Virus record (IMG/VR): IMGVR_UViG_3300042861_000484
Coordinates: 1 to 60,597 of that record
Source of the DNA: a virus
Taxonomy: Duplodnaviria; Caudoviricetes
Reading direction: 5' to 3' (one strand)
Length of the DNA: 60,597 nt
Shown here in pieces: positions 5,893 through 38,700 of the stretch. A program made the translations under genes and the position numbers. Numbering within the stretch: position 1 is the first letter of the stretch; each line of letters begins with the position of its first letter. A model generated the notes under the pieces. That model searched no databases. It worked only from the letters and a program-made list of their open reading frames with translations, and was not told where the DNA came from.

Positions 5893-6422
5893 TGTTTGAT
5901 AGGCTCATAGACTTAATATCCAACTGGCTAGAAAAGATTGTCCCATTCTTCATTGTTATGGAGTATGAGGAGGCTGTTGTCTTGCGCTTTGGAAAGTTTC
6001 ATAAGGTGGCTAAGCCTGGCTTGCATTTTAGAATCCCTATTGTAGATGAGTTTATGACAAACCACGTTGTTGTCACTACACTCAGTCTTCCTCCACAGAG
6101 CTTGTATACAAAAGACAAGCAGAACATTGTGGTGAAGGGGGTAATCAAATATAGAATTGCTGACGTGCAGACTTTCCTTCTAGAGGTGTACGATGCTCAG
6201 GATGCTCTGTCTGACATGACACAATCCATCATCAAGAACGTAGTGATGGATAAGTCTTTGGAAGAATGCATCGATACTGAGATTGACAATCTTCTCTCTA
6301 AGAAAGCTAGGGTGGAAGCTAAGAAGTGGGGTGTTGAAATTCAACAAGTTACGCTCACAGACCTAGCTCCTATTCGTAGTTTTAGGCTAATAAATGACAC
6401 AGTGATAAACAAACTTGATTAG
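5892..6422 (+). CDS. SPFH/Band-7 (stomatin/HflK-like) domain protein
   Basis: EYEEAVVLRFGKFHKVAKPGLHFRIPIVD, QSLYTKDKQNIVVKGVIKYRI, KWGVEIQQVTLTD are hallmark SPFH segments. Confidence 0.85.
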   Translation: MFDRLIDLISNWLEKIVPFFIVMEYEEAVVLRFGKFHKVAKPGLHFRIPIVDEFMTNHVVVTTLSLPPQSLYTKDKQNIVVKGVIKYRIADVQTFLLEVYDAQDALSDMTQSIIKNVVMDKSLEECIDTEIDNLLSKKARVEAKKWGVEIQQVTLTDLAPIRSFRLINDTVINKLD

Positions 6423-18189: not shown

Positions 18190-19146
18190 ATGTCCTACTA
18201 TTATAAATATAATTTCACATCTCCTGAGATAGTTTATTCCACCGTAAAGGAGGAACTGAAAAGCTATTTCGATACAGGAGCTGTGGATGATCTGATGTTT
18301 CCCACCTATCTGGACAAATGTCTCAGAAAGTTGGGTAGGGCTACTTATGTTATTTCTGAAGAAACTCTATATATCGAGGACTTTGAAGCTAGACTTCCTG
18401 ATAACTTCTTTGCTGTCAGAGAAGCTTGGATGTGCACATATGTAAGTGGATATCCCTATCAGTCAGCTAACTCTTTCTACTCCCAAGCTGTTGGTCAAAC
18501 CACCATTCAAGTGAGCCCTGTCACTGTTGGTGGTGATGTTTGTGGTGCATGTAATCAAGCAGCCTGTGTTGCATGTTCTGTATGTACACAACCATCCTGT
18601 AACTGCACCTGTCCTCTTGAGATAACTCAGGCTGTATATAAAACTAATAATCAGCTGAATATTGCTTACGAAAAGAAATATTTGCTGAAACCTGGAAACA
18701 TTTCTGTTAGAGCAGACTGTGCACTTGACTGTGCTAATTTCAACAGTTCTGCTGCTGACAGTTTTGATATTAGAGATAATAAGTTTGTAACCAACTTCAG
18801 AAATGGAGTTGTGCATCTGGTTTTCTATGCCACAGAATATGATGGTGGAGGAAACCAGCTGATCCCTGATAACTACCGTATCAGAGAGTACATTGAGGCT
18901 TTCATCAAATACAAGGTATTTGAGACCCTCACCAATCAGACCAATGATGAGACATTTAACCAACTTCAGACTAAGCTTGCTTACTACAAGCAATTGTCTG
19001 ATGAGGCATTCATCATGGCTGATATCGAGATCAAGAAGCAAGATGTATACGCTAAACAAAGAAGAATTGTACAGGATCTGAATAGATTCAACATGTACGA
19101 ACTTCCAAACAGAGTAAGCAGATATGGCTGGAGAAGAAACAACTAA
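18190..19146 (+). CDS. tail tubular protein (P22 gp4-like, crAss Ttub)
   Basis: position between IHF-like and stabilization genes; IEDFEARLPDNF and LIPDN motifs; Cys-rich insert. Confidence 0.7.
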   Translation: MSYYYKYNFTSPEIVYSTVKEELKSYFDTGAVDDLMFPTYLDKCLRKLGRATYVISEETLYIEDFEARLPDNFFAVREAWMCTYVSGYPYQSANSFYSQAVGQTTIQVSPVTVGGDVCGACNQAACVACSVCTQPSCNCTCPLEITQAVYKTNNQLNIAYEKKYLLKPGNISVRADCALDCANFNSSAADSFDIRDNKFVTNFRNGVVHLVFYATEYDGGGNQLIPDNYRIREYIEAFIKYKVFETLTNQTNDETFNQLQTKLAYYKQLSDEAFIMADIEIKKQDVYAKQRRIVQDLNRFNMYELPNRVSRYGWRRNN

Positions 19147-22100
19147 CCAGGGTAACATTAGGGCGGAGTATAACAACGCAACCACTGGCTTAAACTTAGA
19201 CCAGTCTGTTAATCAGATTCCTAAGGGTAAGCTCACGTATGCATTGAATGCTGCTGTAGAGAACTTTGACTCAAATTCTGTTAACTACCAGAATGAGCCA
19301 GGGAATGAGCTTTGCCTTAATTTTCCTGAGGGTTACCAACTGATTGGTGAACACTTTATTAATGAGAAGAGTAAACATGTATTCTTTCTTGCTAATCCTG
19401 AAACAGGAGATAGTGAGATTGGGTACATGGATAATAATGATTGTGTCTATCGCACTTACATCAATGCTAAGTGCTTGAATTTCAATATCAAGTATCCAAT
19501 TCACAAGGCTGTCCACAAACTTACTAATTGCACCACTGAGGTGTATTGGACAGATGGTTACAATCCCAGACGCTATCTAGATCTGGAGAATATTCCCTAC
19601 AAGCTCCAATCTGGAGCAAACCTTTGCGACCCCACTTTCACCAATGAGATTGATTGTAATCAGTTGAATGTTCAACCTGATTTCAACATTCCTCAATTGG
19701 ATGTAGTTGATGTTACCACTGGTGGAGACTTGCAAGCTGGTACATATCAGTTTGCTATTCAGTATTCTGACTCTGTAAGTCAGGGATACACCTCGTATTT
19801 CTCTGTTACAAATCCTACACCTATTGCTGATATAAGCATTACCACACCTAATTTTAATTATCAGGTGGGTAAGTCTATTAGAGTGAGGGTTAGTAATTTA
19901 GATATCACTGGGCTCTTTCAGTATTTTAACTTGGCAGTGATTAAGACCATCAACGGCATTACATCTGTAGAGCTGATTGGTACGTATTTCATTAGTGATA
20001 ATGAACAAGTGGTTACATACACTGGTCAGAATAAGTCAGACATTCGTCTATTGATTGATGATATTTTCAACAAGTATCCTTATTACGAGATTGCTCAGGA
20101 CATCACAGCAGTTCGTGATATTCTTGTTTGGGATAACCTCACATCCATTGACCGAGTTAACTATCAGCAGATTGCTAATCAAATTCAGCTTCAGTGGGAA
20201 ACTTGGAGAATTCCTAATACAGAAACCTACGCTGATGAGCTGAATGCCACAAACCTGCGTGGGTACCTGCGTGATGAGGTGTATGCATTTGAGATAGTGT
20301 TTCTCCTGAAGAATGGTAAGCAGACAGATGGTTTTCATATTCCTGGAAGAACAGCTACCACACTTGATGCATCTCCTGTTCCTAACACAAATGCTGACTT
20401 CATTGGTGATCCTGATTATACAGTAGGTACAATAGGATATAGTCCGTATTGGAAAATATATAATACAGCCACGCTTACAGGATTCTCTCCAGGATACTCT
20501 CCTGCAGCTGATTACAAAGGATCTTACCAGTATGGTGAGTTTGCGTATTGGGAGTCTGTAGAAAAATATCCATGTAACGAAGATCTTTGGGGAGACTTGG
20601 CTGATAAGCCTATCAGACACCACAAGTTCCCAGATGTACTTGTAAGTCCTATATTTGAGTCTGCTCTCTACTCATCACCTGGATCTATGGTGATGCAGAA
20701 GGATGCTGTGTTCCCAATTGGTGTAAGAATTGACACAGCCTACGTTGCAACATTGATTGCTAATTCCAATCTTACACAAGAGCAGAAAGATAGCATTGCT
20801 GGATTTAAGATTGTTCGTTCTGATAGAGGACCTGATAAGTCTATTGTAGCTAAGGGCATTCTCAGAAATGTCGGTAAATACACTAGAGAAGAGACTGACT
20901 ATTATTTCCCCAACTACCCTTATAACGACCTAAGACCAGATCCTTTCCTTCTTGATAAAAGTAACGCATATACAGCAAATACTGATGTTGCTGATTCTAT
21001 AAATGGTATTTGTAGAAACTACACCATCACTGCATATGAGAACGGTATAGTTGTAGAATATATTGATTGCTACATAAATGAGATAGAGACAACAGATGTT
21101 CTAAATGTTGGAGATTCTGTTTCTGTTTGTTCTCTCATAGAACCGAGAGTTAGAACAGGAGATGCAAAAAAGGTATGCATCATCTCCAATACATATAAGA
21201 TATACAAGGTTATCACACGTTTACCAACTGTTGGTAGAGATTTTCTATACATACCTCCAACAAATGGGATTATGCCTTGGGGATCTCCTGCCCCAGCACC
21301 ATACACCAACTGGTGTGATTTCTGTCAGAACAATCCAACAAATGTAGCTTGTAAAGATAGAGATGGTAATTTTCCAAGAGCACTGAATGAGGTGGTTCTT
21401 GCAACAACTGGTCCTGGAACATTTATTGTTTGGTCTCTGATCAAACCTTATTTTATTAATGGTACAAATAGTGGATATGAAATAGAAGAGGTTGATTCTG
21501 TAGGATTTGGTATTTGTAATCCTGCTCAACTCAATCCTTTTGTTGATAATGATTTGAAATACAGACAGATATTCAACTCTCCTGAGACATCCTTCGGACA
21601 ACCGTTCCTTGGAGATGTTCTTAGACTAGAGAATGTAATATTTGGTGCTGGTATTGCACACTTCACTAAGGTGAGAAACAATGCTCTTTACAGATTGATA
21701 AGTAAAGAGGCACAGCTAGATGCTCTTGGTTCTGCTTCTAGTATTGCAAGCATTACAACACCAACAGATGTTTCTGTATTATTTTCTGCATACCAGGCTT
21801 ACTTAACCATATATGCAAACGCTATTGTTAGAAGAAACTATGCGTATTCTTTCAACTCGATAGCTAGCTATGATTACAGTGCACCTATTGCTAACAACTT
21901 GGGAATCAAGCAAAGACCTCTTGATATTGCTCAATACCTGATTCCTGGTGTACAAAGTGTTGGAAGTGGCGAAGATCCTATCAACAACTTCCAAAGAGAG
22001 TCTTCTGTATATCTAAAGACTTCTGAGAGAAACATCACTACTACAAAGAGCTACGGTGTATACGAGCTATGTAAAACTGGTGGGTTTGTTCCATCTTTAG

Positions 22101-24793
22101 TATATTACACTGATATTATTACAGGAATTGGAACATTTGTAACAATTGCTTCTGTTGGGTGTGTTACAGTGAACTCTTTCACTACACCTGTAGCTGTTGC
22201 AAATATCTCTAATACAACAATTGCATTAACTAGTTCATCTACATTATCTTTCACAGGGCCTATAGATCCCCTTCTTTTCCCAAGCGATACGCCAAGCTTG
22301 TCTGGAACAGGACTGGTTGACAACTCTAGATTTGCTCTTGGGGATGGATCAAATCCTGCTGCAGATTGTAATGCTCCTGGAAAGAATGTTCCAATAAATG
22401 TTGTATCTTATTACGCTTCTATCAAGAACCTTTCTGTAGGTCAGTATGGACAGATCTACTCATACAACACAATTGATACAGGGTTCCAAAGAGATATCAC
22501 TCCTGTAACTGCCACAACATATGAAACTATATTTGGTGGAGATACATTCATCAGCAAGTTTGCATTCAAGACCAAGCTCCCATTCTTCTTTGACAATCGT
22601 GTAGGTGCTCCTGATGATAGTGACATTTTCTACGATGAGATTGGTAATGTAGCCTATCCAAAGTATTGGTTCTCAGCAAGATCTGTTCTTAGTAATGTTG
22701 AGGCTGCTGGTGTTATATTGAAAAACTTCATATCATTCAAGGCTCACAACCTTGATTGTCCTAATTCTCAGACTCCTGAAGATGCTCCTGGAAGAACTTA
22801 TTACGATGGGAAGATGTACCTTTTTGCTTATGGTATTCCATACTTCTATTGTGAGTCTTCTTATAATGTGGATTTGCGTCAAGCGTTTAATACAGAAGAA
22901 GGGGACTTCTGGCCGCATGTAAGTAATAGTATTCCTGATGATTGGGTGCAAGAGTCTAATGTGTCTATTGCTAATGACAACACCTACTATTATAATGTAA
23001 CTTATTCTAAGCAGAATAAGGAGAATGTGTTCACGCATCTGCCTAATGACTGGAGTAACATCTGTTACACAAACTATCCTTTCAGAGCAATCTATTCTGA
23101 TACACAAGAGACAGATCCAGACAACAGAGCTAATAACTGGTTGATTTACAAACCATTATCTTATTTTGACTTTCCTCAGAACTTTGGAAAGCTGGTAAGT
23201 CTTGATGGTATTCAGAACAAGGCTGTGTTGGCTAGATTTGAGAACAAGAGCTTGCTGTATAACACCATGCTCACTATCAATACAAGCAATCCACAAGCTG
23301 CATATCTGGGTAATGATCTTCTATTTAGATCTTCCCCTCCTGTTGACTTTGCAGAAACTGATCTTGGATATGTAGGATGTCAGCACAAGATGCTTCTGAA
23401 AATCCCTCAGGGACAAGTGACGGTTGATGCTAAAAGAGGACAGATATTTTTGATTAGTGGAAACGAAGCGGTTGATATGTCTGCTTTTGGATCTGGAATG
23501 AACAGGTTCTTTACAGACCATCTGGCTTTTGAAATCCTGAGATATTTCCCTAATGTAAATGTAGATAACCACTTTGATGGATTAGGACTACATGGTGTGT
23601 ACGACTCTAAGTATGACAGAGTGATCATCACCAAGCTTGACTATACACCAAAGAGAACAGATATTAAGTATGATCCTATAACACAGGAGTTCTACATTGA
23701 TAATGTGTACCCACAAAACTCAACTAGCACTACATCTTCTTCTACAAGTAGCACTAGTACAACATCTATTCCTGGAACAACTTCTACAACAACCACTGTA
23801 CCTCCAATTGTCACTCGTGAGGTGGTTTATCTGACAGATGAGGCATATTTCTGTAACAGAAGCTGGACCCTTTCATTCAACTTCAACACCAAGAGTTGGA
23901 TTAGTTTCCATAGCTACATTCCTAACTGGTATATTGCTGAAAACAACTTCTTCTATTCTGGATTGAACGATTGTTGTACAACACTTGAAGCACTTGTTGG
24001 TGAGCCTGGTTCTACTACCACCACTACAACAACAACAGCATTTGTGTGTACATGTAACACTTATGAGGTGAGCAACTTCACAGGGTTTACACAGCAATAC
24101 GACTTCTATGATTGCAACAATGTGTTACATCCTGCAGTGACCATCCTGGATGATGAAACCCAGCAGGTGTGTGTATGTAATGATAGAATTTATTACGCTG
24201 ACAGAGCATTGATTGTTAACCTGATTGCGGGTACATGTATCACCACCACAACTTCCACAACCACAACTGCTTATACAGGATGTGACCTAGTTGGAACAGC
24301 TTGTGAGGAAATCACTACCACTACAACAACAAGTAGCACATCAAGCACCACCACAACTACTACCACAATTGCCTGTGAGTGTCATGATGCTGAGATAACA
24401 GATGATGCTGGATATTTCTACTTCGATTGTAATGGAAACTATATAGCAGGTGGCGGGGCTTCTGGAGCTGTTGTTTGCTTCAATATCTATCAGCCATACA
24501 GTGCAAATCTTCTGGATCTTGGTATTTCTGGAACTTGCCTGTGCCCTGGACAAACAACCACTACAACAACTACTAGTACAAGCACTACGACTACCACCAC
24601 AACAGCTTTTGGTACAAACTGTACAACGTACCAGATTCAGCCTGTTGAGTCTATAAGCATTGAGTGGGAGGATTGTGGAACAGGAACACCGCTTTCTGGA
24701 ACTTATGTAAGCACTCAAAACATATGTGCTAACACTGGAACTCTTGGAATCACTGGTGGAACTGGTATCATCACTGTAATGGGTCCTTGTTAA
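19124..24793 (+). CDS. tail stabilization/muzzle protein, N-terminal major part, with Cys/Thr-rich appended modules
   Basis: GLNLDQS...YALNA start, YWTDGYNPRRY, YLRDEVYAFEI, FGGDTFI, SWTLSFNFNTKSWISFHSY propeller-type motifs; synteny. Confidence 0.8.
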   Translation: MAGEETTNQGNIRAEYNNATTGLNLDQSVNQIPKGKLTYALNAAVENFDSNSVNYQNEPGNELCLNFPEGYQLIGEHFINEKSKHVFFLANPETGDSEIGYMDNNDCVYRTYINAKCLNFNIKYPIHKAVHKLTNCTTEVYWTDGYNPRRYLDLENIPYKLQSGANLCDPTFTNEIDCNQLNVQPDFNIPQLDVVDVTTGGDLQAGTYQFAIQYSDSVSQGYTSYFSVTNPTPIADISITTPNFNYQVGKSIRVRVSNLDITGLFQYFNLAVIKTINGITSVELIGTYFISDNEQVVTYTGQNKSDIRLLIDDIFNKYPYYEIAQDITAVRDILVWDNLTSIDRVNYQQIANQIQLQWETWRIPNTETYADELNATNLRGYLRDEVYAFEIVFLLKNGKQTDGFHIPGRTATTLDASPVPNTNADFIGDPDYTVGTIGYSPYWKIYNTATLTGFSPGYSPAADYKGSYQYGEFAYWESVEKYPCNEDLWGDLADKPIRHHKFPDVLVSPIFESALYSSPGSMVMQKDAVFPIGVRIDTAYVATLIANSNLTQEQKDSIAGFKIVRSDRGPDKSIVAKGILRNVGKYTREETDYYFPNYPYNDLRPDPFLLDKSNAYTANTDVADSINGICRNYTITAYENGIVVEYIDCYINEIETTDVLNVGDSVSVCSLIEPRVRTGDAKKVCIISNTYKIYKVITRLPTVGRDFLYIPPTNGIMPWGSPAPAPYTNWCDFCQNNPTNVACKDRDGNFPRALNEVVLATTGPGTFIVWSLIKPYFINGTNSGYEIEEVDSVGFGICNPAQLNPFVDNDLKYRQIFNSPETSFGQPFLGDVLRLENVIFGAGIAHFTKVRNNALYRLISKEAQLDALGSASSIASITTPTDVSVLFSAYQAYLTIYANAIVRRNYAYSFNSIASYDYSAPIANNLGIKQRPLDIAQYLIPGVQSVGSGEDPINNFQRESSVYLKTSERNITTTKSYGVYELCKTGGFVPSLVYYTDIITGIGTFVTIASVGCVTVNSFTTPVAVANISNTTIALTSSSTLSFTGPIDPLLFPSDTPSLSGTGLVDNSRFALGDGSNPAADCNAPGKNVPINVVSYYASIKNLSVGQYGQIYSYNTIDTGFQRDITPVTATTYETIFGGDTFISKFAFKTKLPFFFDNRVGAPDDSDIFYDEIGNVAYPKYWFSARSVLSNVEAAGVILKNFISFKAHNLDCPNSQTPEDAPGRTYYDGKMYLFAYGIPYFYCESSYNVDLRQAFNTEEGDFWPHVSNSIPDDWVQESNVSIANDNTYYYNVTYSKQNKENVFTHLPNDWSNICYTNYPFRAIYSDTQETDPDNRANNWLIYKPLSYFDFPQNFGKLVSLDGIQNKAVLARFENKSLLYNTMLTINTSNPQAAYLGNDLLFRSSPPVDFAETDLGYVGCQHKMLLKIPQGQVTVDAKRGQIFLISGNEAVDMSAFGSGMNRFFTDHLAFEILRYFPNVNVDNHFDGLGLHGVYDSKYDRVIITKLDYTPKRTDIKYDPITQEFYIDNVYPQNSTSTTSSSTSSTSTTSIPGTTSTTTTVPPIVTREVVYLTDEAYFCNRSWTLSFNFNTKSWISFHSYIPNWYIAENNFFYSGLNDCCTTLEALVGEPGSTTTTTTTTAFVCTCNTYEVSNFTGFTQQYDFYDCNNVLHPAVTILDDETQQVCVCNDRIYYADRALIVNLIAGTCITTTTSTTTTAYTGCDLVGTACEEITTTTTTSSTSSTTTTTTTIACECHDAEITDDAGYFYFDCNGNYIAGGGASGAVVCFNIYQPYSANLLDLGISGTCLCPGQTTTTTTTSTSTTTTTTTAFGTNCTTYQIQPVESISIEWEDCGTGTPLSGTYVSTQNICANTGTLGITGGTGIITVMGPC

Positions 24794-24804
24794 ACGATAA
24801 TTAG

Positions 24805-25674
24805 ATGTCTAAAACAATAATCATAAAGCTTACAAAAGCCTCCCCTAGAGTGGGACCTTTCACCATCACTGATGATCGTGGGAATGTTCTTGCTACGGGT
24901 GTCACTTTGCAAGAGCTTATTGATGGGGTGGTTTATACAGTGGACGATGCTGTTAATGTGATTACTATTCAGTCTACAGGAAAATGCAAAACTAGTAGGT
25001 CATTTTCTGTAAATGTATTTATTTCACCCAACCAAATAACCAACTCAACATTCACCATATCTAGAAATGCGTGTCTGTGGAGACATCTGACCAACCCAGA
25101 AATATACAATTACTATTACGGAAATATTGAACCTTACATTATAGAATATCCGTTTGCTTATCAATATAACGATGAGATTCTTCAGAATGTAAAGGACTAT
25201 ACAAAGGCTTACAAATACTTTGCATCCACCACTGGTGTGTGGAATGATAATGCTAGAATTGAAACAGACGATAGATGGTTCAACAAGGCTGTTCTGTACA
25301 ATGGTCAGCAATCTACAGGTGTACTTGAGCTGGTTCCCAAACCTCTCAACAACCTGAGTAAATACCTGACCTATCCTATTTACAACACTGAAAGTAAGAC
25401 TATCACCTACACCAAGAGTGATAATTTCTATCAGTATAACACATTCTGGTCTTTGGTTAAGAGCAAGTCAGAACCTCTGTTTCTAACCACCTGTGAATCT
25501 CTGTCTATAGACAAGATTGTAAACCAGGCTAATATGGATTATGGCAAGAGATCCTTTAAAAAAGAACCTCTGAGAGCCAAAGAATTGAAGGTGAGGCACA
25601 TCCTTGACAATCGTTTTGATGCTCATCTTGTCAGCCAGTTTATTGTTACCCCTGCCCAGGTCAGCTATAAATAA
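24805..25674 (+). CDS. probable C-terminal part of the stabilization protein fused to an Ig-like N-domain
   Basis: N-domain similar to 14878 gene; LWRH...NYYYG...IIEYPF...FNKAVLYNGQQSTGVLEL continuation. Confidence 0.6.
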   Translation: MSKTIIIKLTKASPRVGPFTITDDRGNVLATGVTLQELIDGVVYTVDDAVNVITIQSTGKCKTSRSFSVNVFISPNQITNSTFTISRNACLWRHLTNPEIYNYYYGNIEPYIIEYPFAYQYNDEILQNVKDYTKAYKYFASTTGVWNDNARIETDDRWFNKAVLYNGQQSTGVLELVPKPLNNLSKYLTYPIYNTESKTITYTKSDNFYQYNTFWSLVKSKSEPLFLTTCESLSIDKIVNQANMDYGKRSFKKEPLRAKELKVRHILDNRFDAHLVSQFIVTPAQVSYK

Positions 25675-25680
25675 AAGATT

Positions 25681-26202
25681 ATGGAAATTTGGAAATCTAT
25701 ACCAAGTCTTAATAACTTATACGAAGCAAGTAATCTTGGTAGGATTAGATCTGCTAGTGGAAGGAATAAAGGTAAAGTTCTAAGAGAGTATATTAAGTGT
25801 CCTTCTAATATTAATTACAATTTAGTAGAAGTACACATAGATGGTAAAAAATGGGCAAAGAAAGTACATAGACTTGTGGCTGAAGTATTTTGTGAAAACC
25901 TTCAAGATCACCCAATTGTAATGCATTTAGATAATGATAGAAGAAACAACAAAGCAGATAACTTACAATGGGGTACTTTGAAAATGAATTCTCAACAAAT
26001 GATTAGAGAAGGAAGAGGAAACAAGTCAAAGGGTAGTTCTCATTATTTTTCAAAACTTACTGAAGATCAAGTAGTTGAAATAAGAAAAAAGTATATACCT
26101 AGAAAATATACATTGCAACAATTGGCTAAAGAATATAATGTAAGTTTTGCATTAATTGGACACGTTATAAAAAATAGAAACTGGAAACACGTAACTGTAT
26201 AA
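25681..26202 (+). mobile_element. free-standing NUMOD4-HNH homing endonuclease gene
   Basis: EIWKSIP..YEASNLGRIRS (NUMOD4), VHRLVAEVF..VMHLDNDRRNNKADNLQW (HNH), C-terminal HTH; AT-rich relative to neighbours. Confidence 0.9.
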
Positions 26203-26205
26203 ATA

Positions 26206-29200
26206 ATGGCAAAGAAACTCACCAAGGCTAAAGCTAGAGAAATTCTGCACGATAAGGAAGTGCACGGACAGCCTCTTACAGATAAGCAAAGGAGATTCTT
26301 TGGTGCTATTGCTGGAGGTGCTGAACCCTACAAGGCTGAGAATGGTATTGAGGGAACAATGGGAGGACTCACAGACAAAGGATTTAATTTCAATCCTGCA
26401 TGGGGTGGGGCTTGGAAGAATGGTGGTGAGCTATTACATGCTCAAAAAGGAGAAAAAGTATGTCCTCCAGGATTTGTAAATATTGATGGTAAATGCTTTG
26501 ATAGAGGAAGTAAAGAGTATAAAGATCTTTATGAAGAAGGAATAGGATATTTAGATAAAACAGGGACTCTTGTTTCTTCTAAAATGGAACTTCCTGAGGT
26601 GGTGGTAAAACCAGAATCAGTTTTAAATTTTTTAGACAAAACAATTGGCACTACTGGCGGAAGTTCAGCAAGATATGCATTTGATCAACTTGGTAAACAA
26701 TATGGATTTCCTGAAGTAAAGTCACAAAAAGAATACAAAAAGAACAATCCACTAAGTTTTTTTTCTTTACCTAAAGCAAAAGGACACTACTGGGACAATA
26801 CAATTTATGCTGATGATATTAAAAACTATCTGGCAGAGTTAGCTCATCATAATATGTTTAAGGAAAAAGGTAGAGTTAATCAAATTGGAAGATGGATAGG
26901 AAATGACTTAATTGATTATGTTACAGGAAATGACCCTTATAAAACAGAAGGAGATATAGAGTATGAAGCTCATAAAATAGTTGAACCGAAACTAAAAGAA
27001 GAATACATAAAACATAGAAACAAATATCTTTTAGATAAATATGGAATTTATGGTAGTTCTGGCATTGGTATTTATAAACAAGGTGGATGGCTAGATAAGT
27101 ATCAAGATGGTGGGAAATCTAATCAGGCTAGTGAAACAGAAATGATTCTGCCAGAAGTAGTTGTATCAAATAAAGAAAAGGTTTTAAGACATACTCCTAG
27201 TGCATCAGGTAATTATCAACTTACTAAAACAGTGACACCTTTTAAAACTAATAGACAAATAAGAAAAGGTGTTGAAGCTCCTCTTTATCCTAATGAGGTG
27301 AACTTTATTTCTAATTATGCTGGTGCTATAGGTAGTGTAGGTAGTGTTGATAGTTTACCATCAGCTGTTCCTTTTGAAGGTGAAAAACATTGGAATATTG
27401 ATAGATTTATAATGGACCCTGCTTTTAGTGAAGAATACCCTAATCTTAGAAGTGGTCAATCTAAAAAAGGTCTTAAGAAAAATGTTCTAGCTGACATGTA
27501 TAAATATTACATGTTACAAGGTCAGGATAAAGATGATGCATTTAGAAGTGCTAAACAGTTTATGAGACAAGAAATAAATCCTAGACTGAACAGCAAATAT
27601 TTCAAGGAAGCTTCTAGACTGACAGGTGTTCACAATCAACCTATTACAGAATTTGCTAATCAAAATCCATTTATAGACTTAAGAAATATAAATGAAGATG
27701 AGTCTCTTAGGTCAAATCCTTTTTATAAAGAATACTTTGAGAATCCTATTACAGAAAGAGAGATGAAACAGATATCTAAGTCCTATTTAAAGAACTTTAA
27801 GAAAATGTCTGGTAAGGAATCTAGAAAAAAGGTTAAGGAATGGATCAAAGAAGCGAATGCTCCAGAAGTTCGTTTTCAGCCTTCTGGTATTTCAATGGGT
27901 CAAGAAGACTATAGAGATGGCGGTAACTTAATGCCTCCTATGGCTGGTGCTGATCAGACTGTTCCTATGTACGCCATGGGAGGAAGTCTTCCTGGTTCTG
28001 TAGGATTCATGTATGCAAGAACAGCTGGAGCTGCTCCTTCAGAAGGTCCTTATGCTAAGAAAACTCTTCCTAGTGCTCAGAATGGAGCAGAAATGGCTTT
28101 CTATCAACAAGGGCTAGATTGGAAACCTAAGACTATTAGTAGGAACGGAGGATGGTTGGATAAGTTTGATGATGAGGTTCCTCAGGCTCAGACAGGATTT
28201 CTTACACAAAGATATTCCACTGGTCCTATGATGGGAGATTTGGCTACACAATCTGGAGTTCCTACACAGGGAGAGGTTGCTCGTCAGGATCAGCTTAGAA
28301 AAGAAGTAGAAGCTGCAAAACAGAAACAGGCTGCTAGGGCGCGTTACGAAGCTATGCCTAAAATAGGTCCTGCTAAACAACGTAATTATAGTGAACAAGT
28401 TCAGGCTGATGAGAGAAGAAGAAGATTAAATAAAGAATATATTGCTGACAAACCTCATTTAAGATTAGATAGTAAAGGAAATATCATTAATACAAATCCT
28501 GAACTTACCTTAGAAGGTCAATCAATACCATATACATCAGCTGCTAAAGCTGAAAAGTTTGCTAGGAGTTGGGAGACACCATTAGCTGTTGAAGGAGCTC
28601 TTAGCCTTGCTCCATTAGTTGGTAGAGGTGCTGTTGCAGCTAGTGAATATCTCACAACACAAACTCCTCTTAGAAATGCATACAAAATAAATCCTTGGGC
28701 ATTTAAACCAAAGTCTACATTAAATTATAGACAAGTAGGTGAAAAAGCGTTTGAAGACTTAGAAAGAACAGGACTTGTAAGAGGTGCTGGTGAAAACATT
28801 ATTACTGATCCTAATAAAAATTTACAACAAGTTCTTGATTACTATTCTGCTATTGAAAAAGGAACACCAAATATGTCTGGGGCTATGAATATAAAAGCCC
28901 CTTATTTTCAAAGAGGTAATTTATTTTATGATGTAAATTCTCCAGAAGCTAAATACTTGATAGAAACAACACAGAGTGGTACAGGAGTGTTTTCACCAGC
29001 CCAATCTGGATTTGTATTTAAGGGTGAGGGATTTTATCCATCAAATGCTCCTGGAGGAATTGGTGTTTTAAATCCTTCAGTATTTGATAGAGAACTTGCA
29101 AACTTTAATATTTATAAAAGAGATTGGTTAAGAGGGTATAAGCCTGTAAAATTTTCTAAACCTATATCAACAACATCTGTAGTTAGGGGTCCTATTCCAC

Positions 29201-29790
29201 CACCATATCCTGGAAATGTAATTAATGTTGGAGCATTAGGAAGAAATGTTGTTGGAGAAGAACTTCCTGAACGTCTTAAACCAATTTTAATGGATGAAAC
29301 AGGAGTTATAAGTATGGAAGATGCACTTATTAAACGTCTTCCTCCACCAGTACCAACAGCTGAAGAGTTAGCCTTATCTCAAAGACTTAAGGATAGAAAC
29401 AGACGTGTTATAGAAGCACTTAAAAATAGAAAACAAAAGAAAGAAGAAGGCGGTGAGATTGTGAAAGATAATGAGGGCTATTGGAATCCTCAGAACTGGG
29501 GAAAGCCTGTTGAAATTAGCTCTAACAAAATCACCATGGAAGGGGTGTTAGAACCCTTGCTTGGAGTGTCTGATACAGGAGATACTAAAATGATGTATCC
29601 TGGTAAGAACTATACATTTGATGGAACCAAGGTGGTGGAATATCCAAGAGAACATTTTAGAGCAGAGGATGGCAAAAGTGTAAATAGAGCTGACGAGTAT
29701 CCCTTGGAAAAACTAGACAACTTACTTAATTTTACCAACTATAATAAACCAAAAGCCAAGTCTGGTAAATGGCTTGAAAAATACAAATAA
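26206..29790 (+). CDS. mosaic virion cargo/polyvalent-like protein 1
   Basis: 1194 aa; repeated GGWLDK(Y/F), xxGG and AQxG motifs separating AT-rich cassettes. Confidence 0.7.
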   Translation: MAKKLTKAKAREILHDKEVHGQPLTDKQRRFFGAIAGGAEPYKAENGIEGTMGGLTDKGFNFNPAWGGAWKNGGELLHAQKGEKVCPPGFVNIDGKCFDRGSKEYKDLYEEGIGYLDKTGTLVSSKMELPEVVVKPESVLNFLDKTIGTTGGSSARYAFDQLGKQYGFPEVKSQKEYKKNNPLSFFSLPKAKGHYWDNTIYADDIKNYLAELAHHNMFKEKGRVNQIGRWIGNDLIDYVTGNDPYKTEGDIEYEAHKIVEPKLKEEYIKHRNKYLLDKYGIYGSSGIGIYKQGGWLDKYQDGGKSNQASETEMILPEVVVSNKEKVLRHTPSASGNYQLTKTVTPFKTNRQIRKGVEAPLYPNEVNFISNYAGAIGSVGSVDSLPSAVPFEGEKHWNIDRFIMDPAFSEEYPNLRSGQSKKGLKKNVLADMYKYYMLQGQDKDDAFRSAKQFMRQEINPRLNSKYFKEASRLTGVHNQPITEFANQNPFIDLRNINEDESLRSNPFYKEYFENPITEREMKQISKSYLKNFKKMSGKESRKKVKEWIKEANAPEVRFQPSGISMGQEDYRDGGNLMPPMAGADQTVPMYAMGGSLPGSVGFMYARTAGAAPSEGPYAKKTLPSAQNGAEMAFYQQGLDWKPKTISRNGGWLDKFDDEVPQAQTGFLTQRYSTGPMMGDLATQSGVPTQGEVARQDQLRKEVEAAKQKQAARARYEAMPKIGPAKQRNYSEQVQADERRRRLNKEYIADKPHLRLDSKGNIINTNPELTLEGQSIPYTSAAKAEKFARSWETPLAVEGALSLAPLVGRGAVAASEYLTTQTPLRNAYKINPWAFKPKSTLNYRQVGEKAFEDLERTGLVRGAGENIITDPNKNLQQVLDYYSAIEKGTPNMSGAMNIKAPYFQRGNLFYDVNSPEAKYLIETTQSGTGVFSPAQSGFVFKGEGFYPSNAPGGIGVLNPSVFDRELANFNIYKRDWLRGYKPVKFSKPISTTSVVRGPIPPPYPGNVINVGALGRNVVGEELPERLKPILMDETGVISMEDALIKRLPPPVPTAEELALSQRLKDRNRRVIEALKNRKQKKEEGGEIVKDNEGYWNPQNWGKPVEISSNKITMEGVLEPLLGVSDTGDTKMMYPGKNYTFDGTKVVEYPREHFRAEDGKSVNRADEYPLEKLDNLLNFTNYNKPKAKSGKWLEKYK

Positions 29791-29791
29791 T

Positions 29792-32700
29792 ATGAAAGCA
29801 CAAATGCTCAAAATCGCTGGTGTTAAGTCTGAGAAGGAATTCTACAAGAAGTTCCCTGATGAAGCATCATTTATGAAAGCTCATGGTAAAGAATTTAAAA
29901 AAGCCATGCGTGAAAATAAGGTGGATAAAGCTCAGGTAGGTACAAGAACTCTTCCTAGTGGAAGAGAGATGAGTCAACAGTTGATGACTGACTTTCCCCT
30001 TGCCCAAGCTCCTGACATCGATGCAATGATGAAACCTGTTAATGTTCCAGGTTCTGCGTTGAAAAGTAAGTCTGCTGTAGGTGGTGCCAAGGGTGTAGGT
30101 GCTACTTCATACATAGAGCCTGCATTGGATGTTATTCAAGGAGCATCAATGATTAAGGGTCAGAGACAAGCTGTTAGAAAAGCTAGACAAAATAAGGAGC
30201 TGACAGGTGTACAAGCTCAGGCTGCAGAGTCTGTTCCTGTACAACCCATTAATCGTCAATACATTAGACCCGAAGATGTTGTATATCAACCAGAACAAAT
30301 GTTCCCTTCTTATGGTGTAGGAACAAATGTACTTGCTGAAGATGGTGCTGTAATCAATCAGATTGGTGGTAACCCCACAGAGATCATGAACACCTTTGCT
30401 CCCAACACCATCTACTCAGATATGGGATATGAGCCCCTGAGTGATAGCAGTAAGGTGAAGCAGTTCAAAGCTGGAGGTGGTTTGAAAGCAGCACTTAATG
30501 ATGGGAACTTTGGTCAATTTATGGGTGGTGGCGGAGGAGATTTTCTTCAAACAATTGGTGGTGCTATTACTGGTGAGCCCGATGCTGGTTCAAAGATTGG
30601 TGGAGGAATTGGTCAGGCTGCTGGTATGGCTATTGGAGGTCCTGTTGGTGGAATGATTGGAAAGTTTGCAGGAACCTTGATTGGTGACATGGTTGATACA
30701 AGTGAGAAACAGATCAGAGAATATAACAAACAGTCTTCCGAAAATATGGGCAGAATCGCAGCTTCGCAAGCTGGTGTTCAGTTTCAAGATATGTTTGGTT
30801 TAAGACGTGGTGGTTTTGTTCCAAAAGCTCAAAATGGCAACCCTGCTCCACAAGGCGTGTGTTCTGTATTCGGTGTTCCTGTTATGGGACCAGGTAAAGG
30901 AAGCAGTGAGGTTGTTGTTCCTGGTGTAAGACCAGAAGAAGTGTATAATAAGTATTATGCAGCAACTACAAAAGAACAAAAGAAAAAATTAGAACCAATT
31001 TATAAAACGTTAGTAAGCGAAGGAAAAATTCCATCTACATTAAATTTTGCTGATTATATTGCTGCACAAAATGAAGCTGATGCTATAAATGATTTCTTTA
31101 CTAAAGATTATTGGTCAGAAAAATTCTTTGATCCTGCCAACCCTACTGTTCCAAAAGCTGATCTTGTGTCACAGGTTCCAACTCGTGTTCAGTTTTATAG
31201 AGCAATGGTTCCTAATATAGGAAGAAAAGAAGCAGGTAGAAGAAATTTAGAAGCGTTGGACATATTAAACTTGATGCCTGTAGAAGAAAGAAAAGCGTTA
31301 ATAGGAAGAGGATATCGAGCTCCTCAACAAGAGAACGGAGGACAAACCTCTGAGTATGAATGGGTTAGTCATACATGGCAGCCCCAGAAGATTGCTTTCT
31401 TTGGAGAGCATAAACTGACTGATTTGCTCAGACCACCAAAAGATGCAGACATGCTTAGAGCTGGTGGAGAGATTAGAAATCTCAGAGACAACTTCATTAG
31501 TGAGGATGAGAAGCTTCTCACAAACATGGCTCTTGGTGGACAACTTGAAACCACATGGGGTGGATATGCTGAGCCTATTTCTCATAATCCCTACATGCCC
31601 TCTACAGGACAAACAGTTATGTTCAGAGGTCAGTCTCATGATGAGAGTGATGGAAAAGGACGCACAGGTATTGGTGTAAAATATGGTGCCCCTGATTCTT
31701 ACACAGACTATGCTGAATACGGAACAAAGACTGATGCTGATGTAGAGGTGGAAAGAAATGAGCCTGCTGTAGAGCTTCCTAATGGGGATGGTGAGAACAG
31801 CATGGTAGTATATGGTAACCTGAAGATCCCTAATCAGTTCTTGAGTGAGATTGGTGATCCTAAAGCTAAGGGTAAGAAGTTCAAAACCTATGTAAAAGAT
31901 CTTGCTAAGAAAGAACAAAGACAAAACAAGATTATCGACAAAAGCTCTGAAAAGCTGGATAACCTAGATCCTAACTCACCATTTGACATGCTGAAGTTCA
32001 ACTCTTTAGCTGCAAATATTAAAGGTGCAAACATGAAGCTTAAGCAATACGCTGATTTCAAAACAAACGCAGCTGCTGTTCAGAACGCAATTAATGACAC
32101 AGCTGAAGAGATGGGACTCAATGCTGATAGTCTGGCTAAGGGTAAGGTGATGCAAGCCAAGAGAGGAGCTAATGTTCCTAAGGCTCAGGTTGGAAGAAGA
32201 CTGACAAGACTTGAAGCATTGGGATATGTTCCTAAAGGTCAAGCGCAAGATCCTACTACTAAGCTCTTTGGAGGTGTAACAATTCAGGATGTTGAAGCTC
32301 TGAAGAGGAGAAATCCTTGGTATGACTGGGCTGGTTTTGATCCTTCTAGCGATGCTGACGTTAGAGCTTTCCAGAAAGCATATAACAGAGAGGCAAAGAA
32401 ACTTGGCGTAAAAAGTGACATACAGGTGGATGGTGATCTTGGTCAACAGACAGTTAGTGCCAAAGCGTTGTATGATGAGGATAAATTAGGACCTTTGGAT
32501 TTGGGTAAGGCATACAAAGGATTCCCTGAACTTAAGCCTGTAGTTCCAAGACTTACAGGTCCTGCTCCAAATATTCTGAAAACTGTCACTCCTCCTGTTA
32601 AGAAAAACGACACTGCATTGATTAACAGCTTGTTAGGTCAAGCTATGCAATATCTCAGACCAACTGACATAGAGCAACTTGATCCAAACCAGCTGATTGG

Positions 32701-33313
32701 TGAGATGTTTGCTTTGTCTCAAAATCAGGTGGAACCCGTATGGGCTCAGAAACTCCAGCCTAGACTTGCCACCCCTATTGACATTTCTCTCCAAGATATT
32801 CTGAACGAGAACAGAGCTACTCTAAGAAGACAACAGCAAATGGTTGGATACAATCCTGCTGCTCAGTCTGCCTTTGCTGCTCAAGAATATGGAGCAAATC
32901 AGAGAGTGTTGGGTGAGCAATTCAGACTGAATCAGGCTGAGAAACAGCGTGTGTATGAGCAGAACAGAAATCTTCTCAACCAGTATGATTTGACTAATCT
33001 GGGTATTCTGGATAAGCAATACGAAAGACAAGCTAAGGCAGAGTCTATCACTGATGCTACCAAACTAGCTGCTCTTAATTCTATGGCTAGCAAAATTGCT
33101 CAGAACAAGTTGGATAACAGAACCTTACAAGTTTATGAGAACTTGTATAACTACCGCTACGATCCTAACTTCAGAGCTCAGAACTTCCAGCTTGCTCAGT
33201 TTTCTATCCCTACAGTGGGATCAACATCCACTAGCTCTTCTAAAACTGCAAAGAGTGGAAAGAAGGTTGAGGAAAGAAATAGCTCCATCGTAAAGGCTCT
33301 CAAGAACATCTAA
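29792..33313 (+). CDS. mosaic virion cargo/ejection protein 2
   Basis: ATG at 29792 just after upstream stop; glycine zipper, GQSHDE...EVERNE segment, PG-binding-like motif, repeated AQxG/xxGG. Confidence 0.7.
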   Translation: MKAQMLKIAGVKSEKEFYKKFPDEASFMKAHGKEFKKAMRENKVDKAQVGTRTLPSGREMSQQLMTDFPLAQAPDIDAMMKPVNVPGSALKSKSAVGGAKGVGATSYIEPALDVIQGASMIKGQRQAVRKARQNKELTGVQAQAAESVPVQPINRQYIRPEDVVYQPEQMFPSYGVGTNVLAEDGAVINQIGGNPTEIMNTFAPNTIYSDMGYEPLSDSSKVKQFKAGGGLKAALNDGNFGQFMGGGGGDFLQTIGGAITGEPDAGSKIGGGIGQAAGMAIGGPVGGMIGKFAGTLIGDMVDTSEKQIREYNKQSSENMGRIAASQAGVQFQDMFGLRRGGFVPKAQNGNPAPQGVCSVFGVPVMGPGKGSSEVVVPGVRPEEVYNKYYAATTKEQKKKLEPIYKTLVSEGKIPSTLNFADYIAAQNEADAINDFFTKDYWSEKFFDPANPTVPKADLVSQVPTRVQFYRAMVPNIGRKEAGRRNLEALDILNLMPVEERKALIGRGYRAPQQENGGQTSEYEWVSHTWQPQKIAFFGEHKLTDLLRPPKDADMLRAGGEIRNLRDNFISEDEKLLTNMALGGQLETTWGGYAEPISHNPYMPSTGQTVMFRGQSHDESDGKGRTGIGVKYGAPDSYTDYAEYGTKTDADVEVERNEPAVELPNGDGENSMVVYGNLKIPNQFLSEIGDPKAKGKKFKTYVKDLAKKEQRQNKIIDKSSEKLDNLDPNSPFDMLKFNSLAANIKGANMKLKQYADFKTNAAAVQNAINDTAEEMGLNADSLAKGKVMQAKRGANVPKAQVGRRLTRLEALGYVPKGQAQDPTTKLFGGVTIQDVEALKRRNPWYDWAGFDPSSDADVRAFQKAYNREAKKLGVKSDIQVDGDLGQQTVSAKALYDEDKLGPLDLGKAYKGFPELKPVVPRLTGPAPNILKTVTPPVKKNDTALINSLLGQAMQYLRPTDIEQLDPNQLIGEMFALSQNQVEPVWAQKLQPRLATPIDISLQDILNENRATLRRQQQMVGYNPAAQSAFAAQEYGANQRVLGEQFRLNQAEKQRVYEQNRNLLNQYDLTNLGILDKQYERQAKAESITDATKLAALNSMASKIAQNKLDNRTLQVYENLYNYRYDPNFRAQNFQLAQFSIPTVGSTSTSSSKTAKSGKKVEERNSSIVKALKNI

Positions 33314-35779: not shown

Positions 35780-38700
35780 ATGCCTCTTTTTGATGAAGAA
35801 TTGCTGAATAATCTTCGCAAGCCTGGAAACCTTCCGAGCTTAAACTCGTATGCAAGTTCCCCATATTCTGGGAACTATGAATACAGTTTTACCCCTCCTA
35901 GTGTTCCTTCCATGTTTGGAGGTTATGCTGATCGCTCGCAAAAAGAGGGAGGCATCACCTTAGAGGAAATGAAAAAAGCTACGCCAACATTCAATTTTGG
36001 ATTTGGTGCTGCTCCTCGTTTTGTCTCACAGCAAGAATTAAATGAAGCTGCTAACAGATATGGTTTTTTTAAAAGAGGTGTTGATTTAGAAGATATTGCT
36101 GCACAAAGACAATCCCCACTTTCAAGATTTGCAAATGGTATTATAAAAGGACTTGGAACAGCAGGAGGTACGTTCATTTCTGGATTTGGAACAATTCCAC
36201 ATGCAATTGATGCTTTTAGAAAGGGTTCCAACTTCATGGATGAAATCTCATCTCAATATGATTGGCAAAAAGATATTAGCGAAAACATTAAGCAATTTGA
36301 AGATCTTCTTCCTAACTATGTTGATAAATGGGAACGTGACCATCCTTTTGGTGGAGTGATTCCTTTTACAAGAGGATCTGCTAACTTCTGGGGAGATGGT
36401 GTATTCAAGAACCTGGGATATGGTGTTGGTGCTATTACCAATGCTCTTGTAACAGATGCAGCTCTTGTTGCAACTGGTCAAGGTCTTGCTGCTGCTCCTC
36501 TTATTGGAGCACAATTAACTAAGCTCGGAGCTGGTGTAACAAGCATGCTTGGTAGAGCTTCTGTACATTTAGGTAAGTTGGCAGCAGGCACAACAAAAAT
36601 GGATGAAGCTCTTGCTGTAGCTAGACAAGCTGGTGGTACAGCTGAACAACTGGCAACTGTAAGAGGACTTGCTTATGCTGCTGCAGGAACAAAAATTACT
36701 AGCGGATCAAGGTGGATGCTTGGTGTATTTAACTCAGCCCAAGCAGAAGCTACGATGGAAGCTGCTGATGGAGAACTTACAATTACTAATCATTTAATTG
36801 ATCAATATAAAAGACAACATAACGGTGATGCGCCTGTTGGTGCTGATTTAGAGGAGATTAAAAGAATAGCTGGTGATGCTAGGAATGTAAGATATGGCAT
36901 CAATATGGCACTTCTTGTTCCTTCTAACGCTTTTCAGTTTGGAAGTTTATTCAAAGGATTTTTTGCTCCTGCTGCTACAAGAGCATTAGCAAAAGGTGTT
37001 GCCACTGATGTTGGTAAGGTGAAGCTTGCTCAAGGATCTTTGGATGTATTTGAAAAGCAAGCTGTAACAGGACTTGCTCCAAAAGCTTGGAATTTTGTAA
37101 AGCCCACTCTGAAGAACATGTTTGCTGAAGGTGTTTATGAAGAGGGTGGACAGTTTGCTGCTGAGAAGGGTACGTTTGATTATTACACTAGAAAATATAA
37201 AAATCTCAAGGAGAACGGCAATCTTGAAAACTGGAGAACTGTTAATGAGATTATGACCTCTGGTATTGAGGGAATTGCAGAGCAGTTCACTAGCACAGAA
37301 GGTTTGAAGAGTATGCTTATTGGTTCCATCTCTGCTGTTATTCAGGGGGGTGTGGCTAATAAGATTCAAACAAAGATGGGTGCTCCCACAGAAGATCAGC
37401 GTTTGCAGAGTGCAATCAATATACTTAATAGATATGGATTGACAGGAATGTTGCAGAATCAGTATTCTGATACATTAAATGCTGCTGGTATTGCTAAAGA
37501 GATGGATGAGGCTGTAGCTTCTGGTAATGTGTTCAAATACAAGAACTTGAAGAACGACATGTTCTTCAACTTGGTTAACTCTCGTGCAATCAATGGGTTG
37601 CATGATGTTACCGTTGAACAGCTGAAGATGTTGAAAGATCTGGATGAGACTGAGTTCCAGAAGACCTTTGGAATGGACTTGAATGAAACAAACCAGAAGA
37701 CTGTTGCTGGTTATGTTGATGCGTTGATTGACAAGGCTAATCAGATGAACAAGTCAATCACCGCTATTAATGATACATTCAAGAATCCTTATACAAGATA
37801 TGATGATCCTCAAACTCAAGAAGAAGTCCTTCAGACATTCAGACACGATACAGTAAATGAATGGAAGACTAACCTAGCCTACTATTCCGCAACAATTGAT
37901 GATGTTAATGGTAGACTAAACAACATTGCTACTAGTGTATCAGAAATCAGTCCTCTGGTTGATACTAGTGTTCTCTCTACACTCACTAATCCTGAGAAGG
38001 TAAATGAGCTTGCTGAAACATATGAGGAACAAGCTATTCAGCTGAAAAAGACTATCAATGAATTCACTTCTCCTGAGGATAGAAAAAGAATAAACAATCA
38101 GGTGAAGGCTCTGCGTACAGCAGCTGAGAAGATTAAGATGGCTGCTGCTAACAAAGACATGACTCTTGATACCTTTGGTAAGCTTCTTAATTTTGAACTT
38201 TCTGGAAGAGAAAACTTAGATGCTGCTATTGTTCCCACTGATAAAAGATTTGATCTTTATAAGTATGGCTTTGATATCAATGCTTTAGAAACTCGTAGAC
38301 AACAGGGACTTGAATCATTTGATAAGCTTGCTTCTGAAGAAGGATTTAATAAATTCTTTGAACAAGCTGAGGAGATTAGAGATGAGGAATATGACTCTAC
38401 AGAGGAAGAAGAAGCTGAAGAGTCTGAGGTTACCACTCCTGAAGTTAAAGCAGCTGAGTTTAAAAACAAAGCTGGTGAAACAGAACTTCCTGAGGCAGAT
38501 AGAGAGTATTCTATTGCTCAGTTGAACAAAGCTAAGATTGAGAAGATTGCTGATGATAGATATCAAGTGACCTCTCCTACAGGAGAACTATCGTTCTATG
38601 AAACAAAAGCAGAGGCTGATGCAGCTGCTGATGTTATGAATGAGGAGCTCGAAGGATTGGAAAAGATTAAGGTGCTTGGTGTTAATGAAGATGGTACAAT

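Follow-up and report, generated by a model that had tools for sequence, protein, structure and literature searches.

The 60.6-kb window analyzed here, meaning the whole stretch of 60,597 nucleotides (positions 1 to 60,597 of IMG/VR record IMGVR_UViG_3300042861_000484), covers the structural half of a crAss-like phage, with genes for a terminase, portal, major head protein, and ring-type virion proteins. Two adjacent genes within it, P1 and P2, encode large proteins of mosaic architecture, in which short peptide motifs form fixed seams, the segments between seams are exchanged among relatives and are of foreign base composition, and selection acts on the motifs as peptides. We consider it probable, at about 0.6, that these proteins represent a carrier with swapped passengers that would be ejected by the phage particle, a WLxKY word serving as docking handle and the adjoining motifs as hinges. 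An earlier note, made from the letters of this DNA alone, had described two cargo proteins punctuated by xxGG and AQxG motifs that delimit swappable effector cassettes, and had interpreted the motifs as protease cleavage or capsid-loading tags and their DNA as recombination joints.

P1 Is a Small Conserved Backbone Carrying Exchangeable Cassettes

Relatives were obtained by scanning IMG/VR with P2, which gave 79 loci of like gene order. P1 comprises the following features, given with window coordinates and, where applicable, in comparison with the relative L001; aa denotes amino acids, GC3 the GC content at third codon positions, and pLDDT the predicted local distance difference test score.

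26206..29790, + strand: P1, predicted 1194-aa modular cargo protein with a conserved backbone and three cassettes
26206..26432, + strand: N-terminal constant block, with a helical leader (aa 1-42), KAENG, then IEGTMGG..AWGG..KNGG
26433..27075, + strand: cassette A (aa 77-290), GC3 0.145, no nucleotide homology to L001
27082..27114, + strand: internal seam GGWLDKYQDGG (aa 293-303), within a stretch of pLDDT <50
27118..27915, + strand: cassette B (aa 305-570), GC3 0.188, no nucleotide homology to L001
27916..28198, + strand: middle constant block, with YRDGG, YAMGG-SLPG..MYAR, SAQNG, RNGGWLDKF, and QAQTG
28199..29442, + strand: cassette C (aa 665-1079), GC3 0.133, nucleotide homology to L001 extending to 28282
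29443..29790, + strand: C-terminal module, with EEGG, a small beta domain (aa 1085-1150), NFTNYNKP, and the terminal KSGKWLEKYK

A protein search retrieved 191 P1 homologs at very low E-values, the best local alignment of each spanning only 5 to 54% of P1. When all local alignments were mapped on P1, aa 1-85, 572-660, and 1075-1194 emerged as constant blocks and the remainder as variable. The N-terminal block, whose first 40 residues are modeled at pLDDT 80-92, was common to about 99 to 115 of 169 homologs, and the middle block, with near-invariant positions, to up to 148 of them. Cassettes A, B, and C combine independently among homologs; cassette A occurred in about 25 of the 169, irrespective of B and C, while the cassette B family consists of 22 proteins in which its start position ranges from 1 to 1140. 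Part of cassette C was matched by proteins of 261 to 272 aa, although many short ones are contig-end fragments and hence not necessarily stand-alone genes. P1 orthologs range from 204 to 1605 aa, the smallest agreeing with a family consensus backbone of ~200 aa.

The 52 distinct P1 orthologs contain 135 WLDKY-type words, which sit at the extreme C-terminus, behind N-terminal openings, and at internal joints, and which are followed by xxGG or (DAP)xAQNG. Three alternative N-terminal openings were found, namely a MAKKLT..FFGAIAGG leader, a zinc-ribbon-like CxC..CxxC, and a leaderless 'MAKWLDKY'. The C-terminal module (pLDDT 77-96; 96.5% nucleotide identity to L001, starting at EEGG) is widespread, since its profile matched 4185 representatives among 1.84 billion proteins at E <= 0.001, 2750 of them at E <= 1e-10 and 765 at E <= 1e-30. 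Among the 131 new top matches of this profile, 128 end with a WLDKY-type word, at protein lengths of 139 to 1711 aa. At least 4185 representative clusters make up the family of this small carrier, and relatives swap modules at fixed seams.

Parts of this arrangement also occur elsewhere. In the more distant phages of L077, L078, and L079 (around 6001), a P2-type leader (..LKIAGVKSEKEFYKKFP..) heads proteins that are otherwise unlike P2, and the gene ahead of it still ends with WLDNY, WLNKYN, or WLSKY; since both are retained there, the P1 end and the P2 leader are the most persistent feature pair. The cultured cyanophage Leptolyngbya phage Lbo-JY46 (PP438436; L206, 4031-13972) has a 1654-aa gene and after it one for a 495-aa protein that aligns through its first 80 residues with the beta domain of P1 (45% identity, E 8e-9); further downstream lies a 484-aa protein that opens with ..LPKAQIG and includes EEGG. 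Lbo-JY46 may be a crAss-like relative with its cargo modules as separate genes.

Seam Motifs Are Concentrated in P1 and P2

Every motif listed in the earlier note was present at its place, and chance expectations were obtained from 5000 shuffles. AQxG occurred four times in P1 (0.32 expected; reached in none of the 5000 shuffles) and three times in P2 (0.71 expected; p 0.04), while W[LI][DE]K[YF] occurred three times in P1 against an expectation of 0.001. In contrast, plain GG was not enriched in P1 (12 observed vs 9.8 expected, p 0.27), and the excess in P2 (19 vs 9.9) came from a single Gly-rich stretch at aa 228-290. Hence, of the xxGG/AQxG set originally proposed, AQxG stood, along with the WLDKY-type words, but a general excess of GG in P1 did not. 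The motif set is (K/N)(N/D)GGWL(D/N/S)K(Y/F) together with (V/I/L)P(S/K)AQ(N/D)G and particular conserved xxGG positions.

The words are also confined in their distribution. Among the remaining 23 open reading frames (ORFs) of the window, AQxG appears once and a WLDKY-type word never, and in the relative G002 the P1 and P2 genes account for 12 AQxG, compared with one in the other 102 ORFs. Across 169 P1-family proteins, AQxG was present at 2.96 per 1000 aa, whereas the control words G.QA, QA.G, AN.G, AQ.A, and AQ.S ranged from 0.12 to 0.33.

Cassette Breakpoints Concentrate on the Seams

L001 shares 91 to 99% identity with the window in the parts common to both, and homology ends or resumes at 26345/26346, 26432, 27916, 28282, 29443, 30832, and 31324. 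Six of these seven breakpoints lie <=13 nt from KAENG, KNGG, YRDGG, EEGG, AQNG, or ENGG. At the first, L001 has a 612-nt insert, a cassette of ~200 aa, exactly behind the KAQxG word of the N-terminal block (KAENG|IEGTMGG in the window), and the middle block resumes at 90.8% nucleotide identity from exactly behind an xDGG word. The joints read YRDGG|NLMPP in the window vs FADGG|NLQPP in L001, KKEEGG|EIVKD vs FEDGG|VVKD, and VPKAQ|NG vs VPKAQ|PG.

The same pattern extended to 56 loci, where alignments with >=85% identity yielded 599 clustered endpoints, which are not independent events; 250 (41.7%) lay <=6 nt from a motif, against a null of 10.6%, and 341 (56.9%) lay <=15 nt away, against 18.4%. 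Relatives therefore differ by the exchange, gain, or loss of inter-motif segments, the breakpoints falling on motifs, in agreement with the earlier proposal, and the colinearity of orthologs that would have spoken against it was not seen, as indels were found at motifs. The diversity of passengers is large. The 531 inter-motif segments of >=100 aa, from 170 proteins, formed 212 clusters, 143 of them singletons, under a rule of reciprocal 70% coverage, which replaced a single-linkage scheme that had chained 384 members into one cluster. A split of P1 in two ORFs in L025 was considered as gene fission that mimics cleavage at motifs, and was unsupported, the split being off-seam; the gene of L053 is apparently frameshifted.

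Composition changes at the same places. The AT-rich shift noted between motifs was confirmed for all four segments in the window (GC3 0.145, 0.188, and 0.133 in P1 cassettes A, B, and C, and 0.178 in the single P2 cassette), compared with 0.28 to 0.37 in the constant blocks and 0.27 to 0.48 in seven other genes. The cassettes are of foreign composition (GC3 0.13-0.19).

P2 Resembles the crAss001 Cargo Protein C1

A single base separates the P1 stop codon from the start of P2, in the window and in most loci. P2 comprises:

29792..33313, + strand: P2, putative cargo protein of 1173 aa that resembles crAss001 C1 (gp45), with the ATG at 29792 as true start
29792..29941, + strand: N-terminal leader, then KAQVG, with 20 invariant columns in aa 1-37 followed by A38-Q-x-G41 (46 orthologs)
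30833..31323, + strand: cassette (aa 348-511) between FVPKAQNG and QQENGG, GC3 0.178, no nucleotide homology to L001
31520..31891, + strand: domain at aa 577-700, opening ALGGQLETTWGG, which aligns with the portal-bound domain of crAss001 gp45

Every P2 ortholog starts with MK..(I/M)LKIAGVK. Many are free of the insert, reading ..FM(Q/E)DGG with a conserved W.SH.WQP word 0 to 7 residues later. Insert length could be obtained for 16 of 46 rows, 12 of which had 0 to 7 aa, while L049 had 128 aa and the window, L001, and L002 had 182 to 199 aa.

A profile of the 46 P2 orthologs aligned, over aa 577-698, with gp45 residues 422-505 at a moderate hhalign probability of 72.6% (E 3.2e-5, 84 columns, 35% identity), and aa 577-700 of P2 were modeled at pLDDT 71-93. 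In the crAss001 particle, gp45 residues 425-552 are resolved on the portal wing (Bayfield et al. 2023, PMC10172136). The start of this ordered portal-bound segment, residues 425-435, reads AFGGWLNTQGG; at the matching place (M/L)GG.L.T.WGG was present in 30 of 33 P2 orthologs, the other three having R for W, and the P1 counterpart reads GGWLDKYxxGG. This short resemblance among gp45, P1, and P2 should be taken as a lead, not proof. Comparison found no similarity of P1 to gp45 (hhalign probability 1.7%), and none of gp46 to P2 or to the 790-aa protein encoded downstream. P2 thus appears to be the counterpart of crAss001 C1 carrying one insert.

Gene order points the same way. P1 and P2 follow the muzzle gene, from which they are separated by a 289-aa gene and an HNH insert, and are followed in turn by genes for 790-aa, 4136-aa, and 2012-aa proteins; crAss001 has muzzle gp44 followed by cargo C1 gp45, cargo C2 gp46, and giant gp47, the cargo genes likewise standing directly after the muzzle gene. 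The order of 288-aa gene, P1, P2, ~880-aa gene, and giant gene was conserved in most of the 79 loci. The earlier placement of both genes in a crAss-like cargo block, downstream of the muzzle gene, was therefore upheld. Given this synteny and the similarity to C1, P1 and P2 are probably virion cargo that is packaged and ejected.

A further part of P2 (aa 797-1021; 32183-32860) matches phrog_36695 as well as genes annotated 'structural protein' in two Cellulophaga phages outside the crAss-like group, phi17:2 and phi4:1 (29% identity, E 5e-9). By eye it is like a peptidoglycan-binding repeat, and no Pfam match was obtained for it.

An Uncut Docking Handle Is Favored over a Cleavage Site

The P1 carrier of ~200 aa starts with a helical leader, continues in floppy linkers rich in Gly, Ala, and Gln, and closes with a beta domain of ~65 aa and a terminal WLxKY. 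Three foreign cassettes are inserted in this carrier at fixed seams, and P2 has one such insert. To account for these observations, we propose that related phages trade cassettes by recombination, which makes the family a multislot carrier for passenger domains of diverse kinds, enzymes among them. The particle would take up these passengers and eject them to the host before or along with the DNA. WL(D/N/S)K(Y/F) may act as an uncut handle that docks the thread-like protein on a repeated site inside the particle, on the portal or tail interior, with the flanking xxGG and P-x-AQ-x-G as hinges and the sole insertion-tolerant places. Cassette exchange would run through the conserved blocks of 230 to 350 nt, followed by selection for in-frame joints at seams, and homing endonuclease genes beside P1 may add breaks.

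The ends of 298 proteins, holding 619 WLDKY words, were informative in this respect. At the C-terminus, 272 copies had the whole word, followed by exactly one residue in 238 cases, and 56 of 78 whole N-terminal copies carried a 3-residue prefix. GG stood ahead of the word in 217 of 269 internal and 200 of 272 C-terminal copies but only four of 78 N-terminal ones, and xxGG or AQxG followed 218 of the 269 internal words. WLDKY is thus always intact, with glycines mainly where another module adjoins, as fits a handle flanked by hinges.

Were P1 and P2 instead polyproteins, a phage or host protease would cut the xxGG, AQxG, or WLDKYx seams and so free effectors in the capsid or the host. Motifs that lie in predicted disordered linkers between modules, modules that start directly behind GG or AQxG, and natural C-termini that mostly stop one residue past WLDKY, like a processed end, would all suit such cleavage, and built-in peptidases have been proposed to process polyvalent proteins (PMC5512222). 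However, a Pfam scan of the 99%-complete relative G002 gave no protease family in the 91 of its 104 ORFs that it covered (all but five across fetch boundaries and eight small overlapping ones), Peptidase_C48 occurred in none of five near-complete relatives, and HExxH was absent from the five cargo-block proteins of the window. Terminal WLDKY copies would be pointless as mere cut sites, yet they are intact, the similar gp45 word falls within an ordered, continuous segment, and the main text of the crAss001 paper has no word starting with 'proteol' or 'cleav' (PMC10172136). A novel or host protease might possibly cut the seams; on balance, we judge a polyprotein unlikely and favor a docking handle with Gly-Gly hinges over cleavage. 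The capsid-loading function that the earlier note proposed for the motifs is plausible.

Somewhat less probable still is that the seam words are conserved remains of a floppy carrier, that is, hinges or spacers recognized by nothing at which insertions survive where tolerated. The chance-level frequency of plain GG in P1, the low pLDDT of the linkers, and the P2 insert at a single DGG hinge that is insert-free in most orthologs would be expected of such spacers, but a five-residue aromatic W-L-D-K-Y kept in so many copies, at both ends and with fixed overhangs, and AQxG at 10 to 25 times the control-word rate, are not. The idea that the motif-coding DNA is a dedicated recombination site, used for site-specific or microhomology-guided cassette exchange, fared worst and is very improbable. 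The concentration of breakpoints on motifs would fit it, and double-strand breaks could come from the homing endonuclease genes that flank P1 in the window and at least six loci. Against this, synonymous codons vary freely in 62 GGWLDK[YF] copies, copies within a gene are not homogenized (likeness 0.80 vs 0.84 between genes), the window junctions share few bases and have no long direct repeats, and no recombinase is encoded beside P1 or P2. These data indicate selection on the peptide, and the earlier view of motif DNA as a recombination joint finds no support in the form in which it was put.

Several points nevertheless weigh against the docking-handle carrier. The link to gp45 consists of one moderate profile match (72.6%) and a 9-residue resemblance, and some of the breakpoints counted above merely mark the ends of conserved blocks. 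The fixed one-residue tail behind WLDKY could equally mimic a processed end, which would favor cleavage. The four cassettes of the window match none of Pfam, NCBIfam, or PDB sequences, so that an effector role of these cassettes is an extrapolation, and Foldseek searches of the PDB with the P1 and P2 models returned no match at E <= 0.001. Presence of P1 and P2 in particles, and binding by the motif, are predictions here.

Some Homologs Carry Enzyme Cassettes

Between the motifs of homologs, cassettes were identified as His_Phos_1, ADPrib_exo_Tox, ART-PolyVal, YkuD, SET, SLT, GNAT, DUF3597, and DUF5872. Any Pfam domain was detected in only four of 50 and five of 64 family members scanned, leaving about nine in ten with no recognizable domain. 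The earlier proposal is supported as to enzyme cassettes between the motifs of homologs; the window's own cassettes, which have no family match, would be effectors by extrapolation.

Further searches added little on their nature. Using phmmer, P1 and P2 gave nothing below E 0.29 against PDB sequences, and in NCBIfam P1 gave nothing and P2 a weak sub-threshold match to PdsO. The best ESM Atlas feature score for cassette C, 0.79, was at noise level, and VIA-align wide with the P2 model returned only helical-hairpin matches with Z about 8, equal to background. In the AlphaFold models, the motifs lie in low-confidence linkers, and only the leaders, some helices, and the C-terminal beta domain are confident. 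Owing to these long low-confidence full-length models (mean pLDDT 49 and 55), the searches with them are uninformative on folds. Likewise, a complex prediction of the portal (864 aa, without alignment) with P1 aa 1075-1194 scored 0.00, which says nothing on binding either way. Among GenBank phages, tblastn retrieved only Cellulophaga phages (P2 aa 795-1021) and one Leptolyngbya phage (P1 beta domain).

Comparison with Known Delivery Systems

Crassviruses are among the most abundant phages, and to our knowledge almost nothing is known of their injected products besides RNA polymerase. Unlike the phage studied here, crAss001 has no P1 counterpart, and its gp45 has two AQxG only and lacks a WLxKY word of the pattern used. 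Modular cassette exchange is not described in the available text of the crAss001 paper (PMC10172136) or of a Crassvirales review (PMC10136315), and words starting with 'mosaic' or 'protease' are absent from the latter. A literature search found no published description of the seam motif or of modular Crassvirales cargo.

The polyvalent proteins of phages and conjugative elements are likewise large and combine variable effector domains in one chain, and delivery along with the DNA has been proposed for them (Iyer, Burroughs, Anand, de Souza, Aravind 2017, PMC5512222). Their ART-PolyVal domain occurs in P1-family members, along with SLT and other enzymes, and architecture varies among P1 relatives; the window's own cassettes have no family match. 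P1 and P2 differ in having a fixed small carrier and defined slots marked by a short peptide that also stands at both ends. No peptidase domain was found in P1 or P2, and the main text of PMC5512222 has no word that starts with 'crass' or 'linker'.

The polymorphic toxins CdiA (VENN) and Rhs, and the RIX and WHIX marker-domain effectors of the type VI secretion system, as available accounts describe them, also combine a conserved delivery part with variable passengers. In CdiA VENN and Rhs proteins, exchange occurs at a conserved peptide border. These toxins have one variable C-terminal toxin with an immunity gene and use bacterial secretion, whereas P1 and P2 have several internal slots and would be delivered by a phage particle; no immunity-like small gene was found between P1 and P2, where the intervening ORFs, if present, are homing-endonuclease-like. 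In T4, internal proteins that are otherwise unrelated share a short conserved capsid targeting sequence at the N-terminus; this tag addresses them to the inside of the capsid for injection and is removed by the prohead protease. Unlike the T4 tag, which is N-terminal only, the WLDKY-type word recurs internally and at both ends, and the prohead protease family was not found in the 91 of 104 G002 ORFs scanned.

We tentatively suggest, as a bolder and doubtful extension, that WLxKY, the AQxG and xxGG seams, and the two N-terminal leaders form an address-and-slot code of a large crassvirus lineage, by which any polypeptide between seams would be threaded into the particle, fixed to a repeated interior site, and injected. 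If this code were true, the thousands of mostly unknown cassettes would amount to a natural collection of anti-host effectors that are delivered by injection. Should the seams serve as an address for packaging or ejection, they would provide a bioinformatic handle for harvesting injected phage effectors, candidate counter-defense proteins included, and would allow proteins of choice to be loaded into the particles of laboratory phage-host pairs.

Neighboring Genes and Likely Host

Upstream of P1, the window holds:

19124-24793: muzzle protein, 1889 aa, matching PF25731 at E 1e-39 and also the N-terminal part of phrog_15100
24805..25674, + strand: conserved 289-aa virion protein, matching phrog_15100 positions 1584-1781 of 1783, the fixed left neighbor of P1 in relatives
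25681..26202, + strand: HNH/NUMOD4 homing endonuclease gene between the 289-aa gene and P1 (phrog_59, PF07463, PF13392)

The 289-aa ORF corresponds to the C-terminal part of a family of long muzzle-type virion proteins, and an ORF of 287 to 310 aa precedes the P1 ortholog in nearly all related loci. The muzzle-type virion protein is seemingly split into the 1889-aa ORF and a separate 289-aa ORF, a form kept in nearly all related loci.

Judged from relatives, the host is probably an environmental member of the Bacteroidota. This is indicated by a protein with SprB repeats in G002 (L200 10434-14444; 1337 aa, also with a beta-helix region), the Cellulophaga matches, and one 'Cytophagia bacterium' label. 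Directly after the portal gene, a 176-aa gene (5892-6422) encodes an SPFH/Band 7 protein, whose G002 ortholog matches PF01145 at E 3e-24, while the window protein itself has sub-threshold HflK/HflC matches only; SPFH/Band 7-type proteins modulate the FtsH protease in bacteria (name from NCBIfam). The 4136-aa protein (35780-48190) has no Pfam or PHROG match and holds DFDID at residue 3229; crAss-like virion RNA polymerases carry such a DxDxD word.

The HNH insert is missing from L001, where its flanks are 96 to 99% identical. Homing-endonuclease-like ORFs of differing types adjoin P1 in the window and at least six loci, lying between P1 and P2 in L021, L022, and L060 and between the 288-aa gene and P1 in L027, L061, and L076; those of the relatives (207, 233-234, and 215 aa) were called endonuclease-like from their sequence, and family matches were obtained for the window HNH/NUMOD4 copy only. 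In L027, L061, and L076, the inserted ORF ends with ..ISYK like the upstream 288-aa gene, as though the end of that gene had been duplicated.

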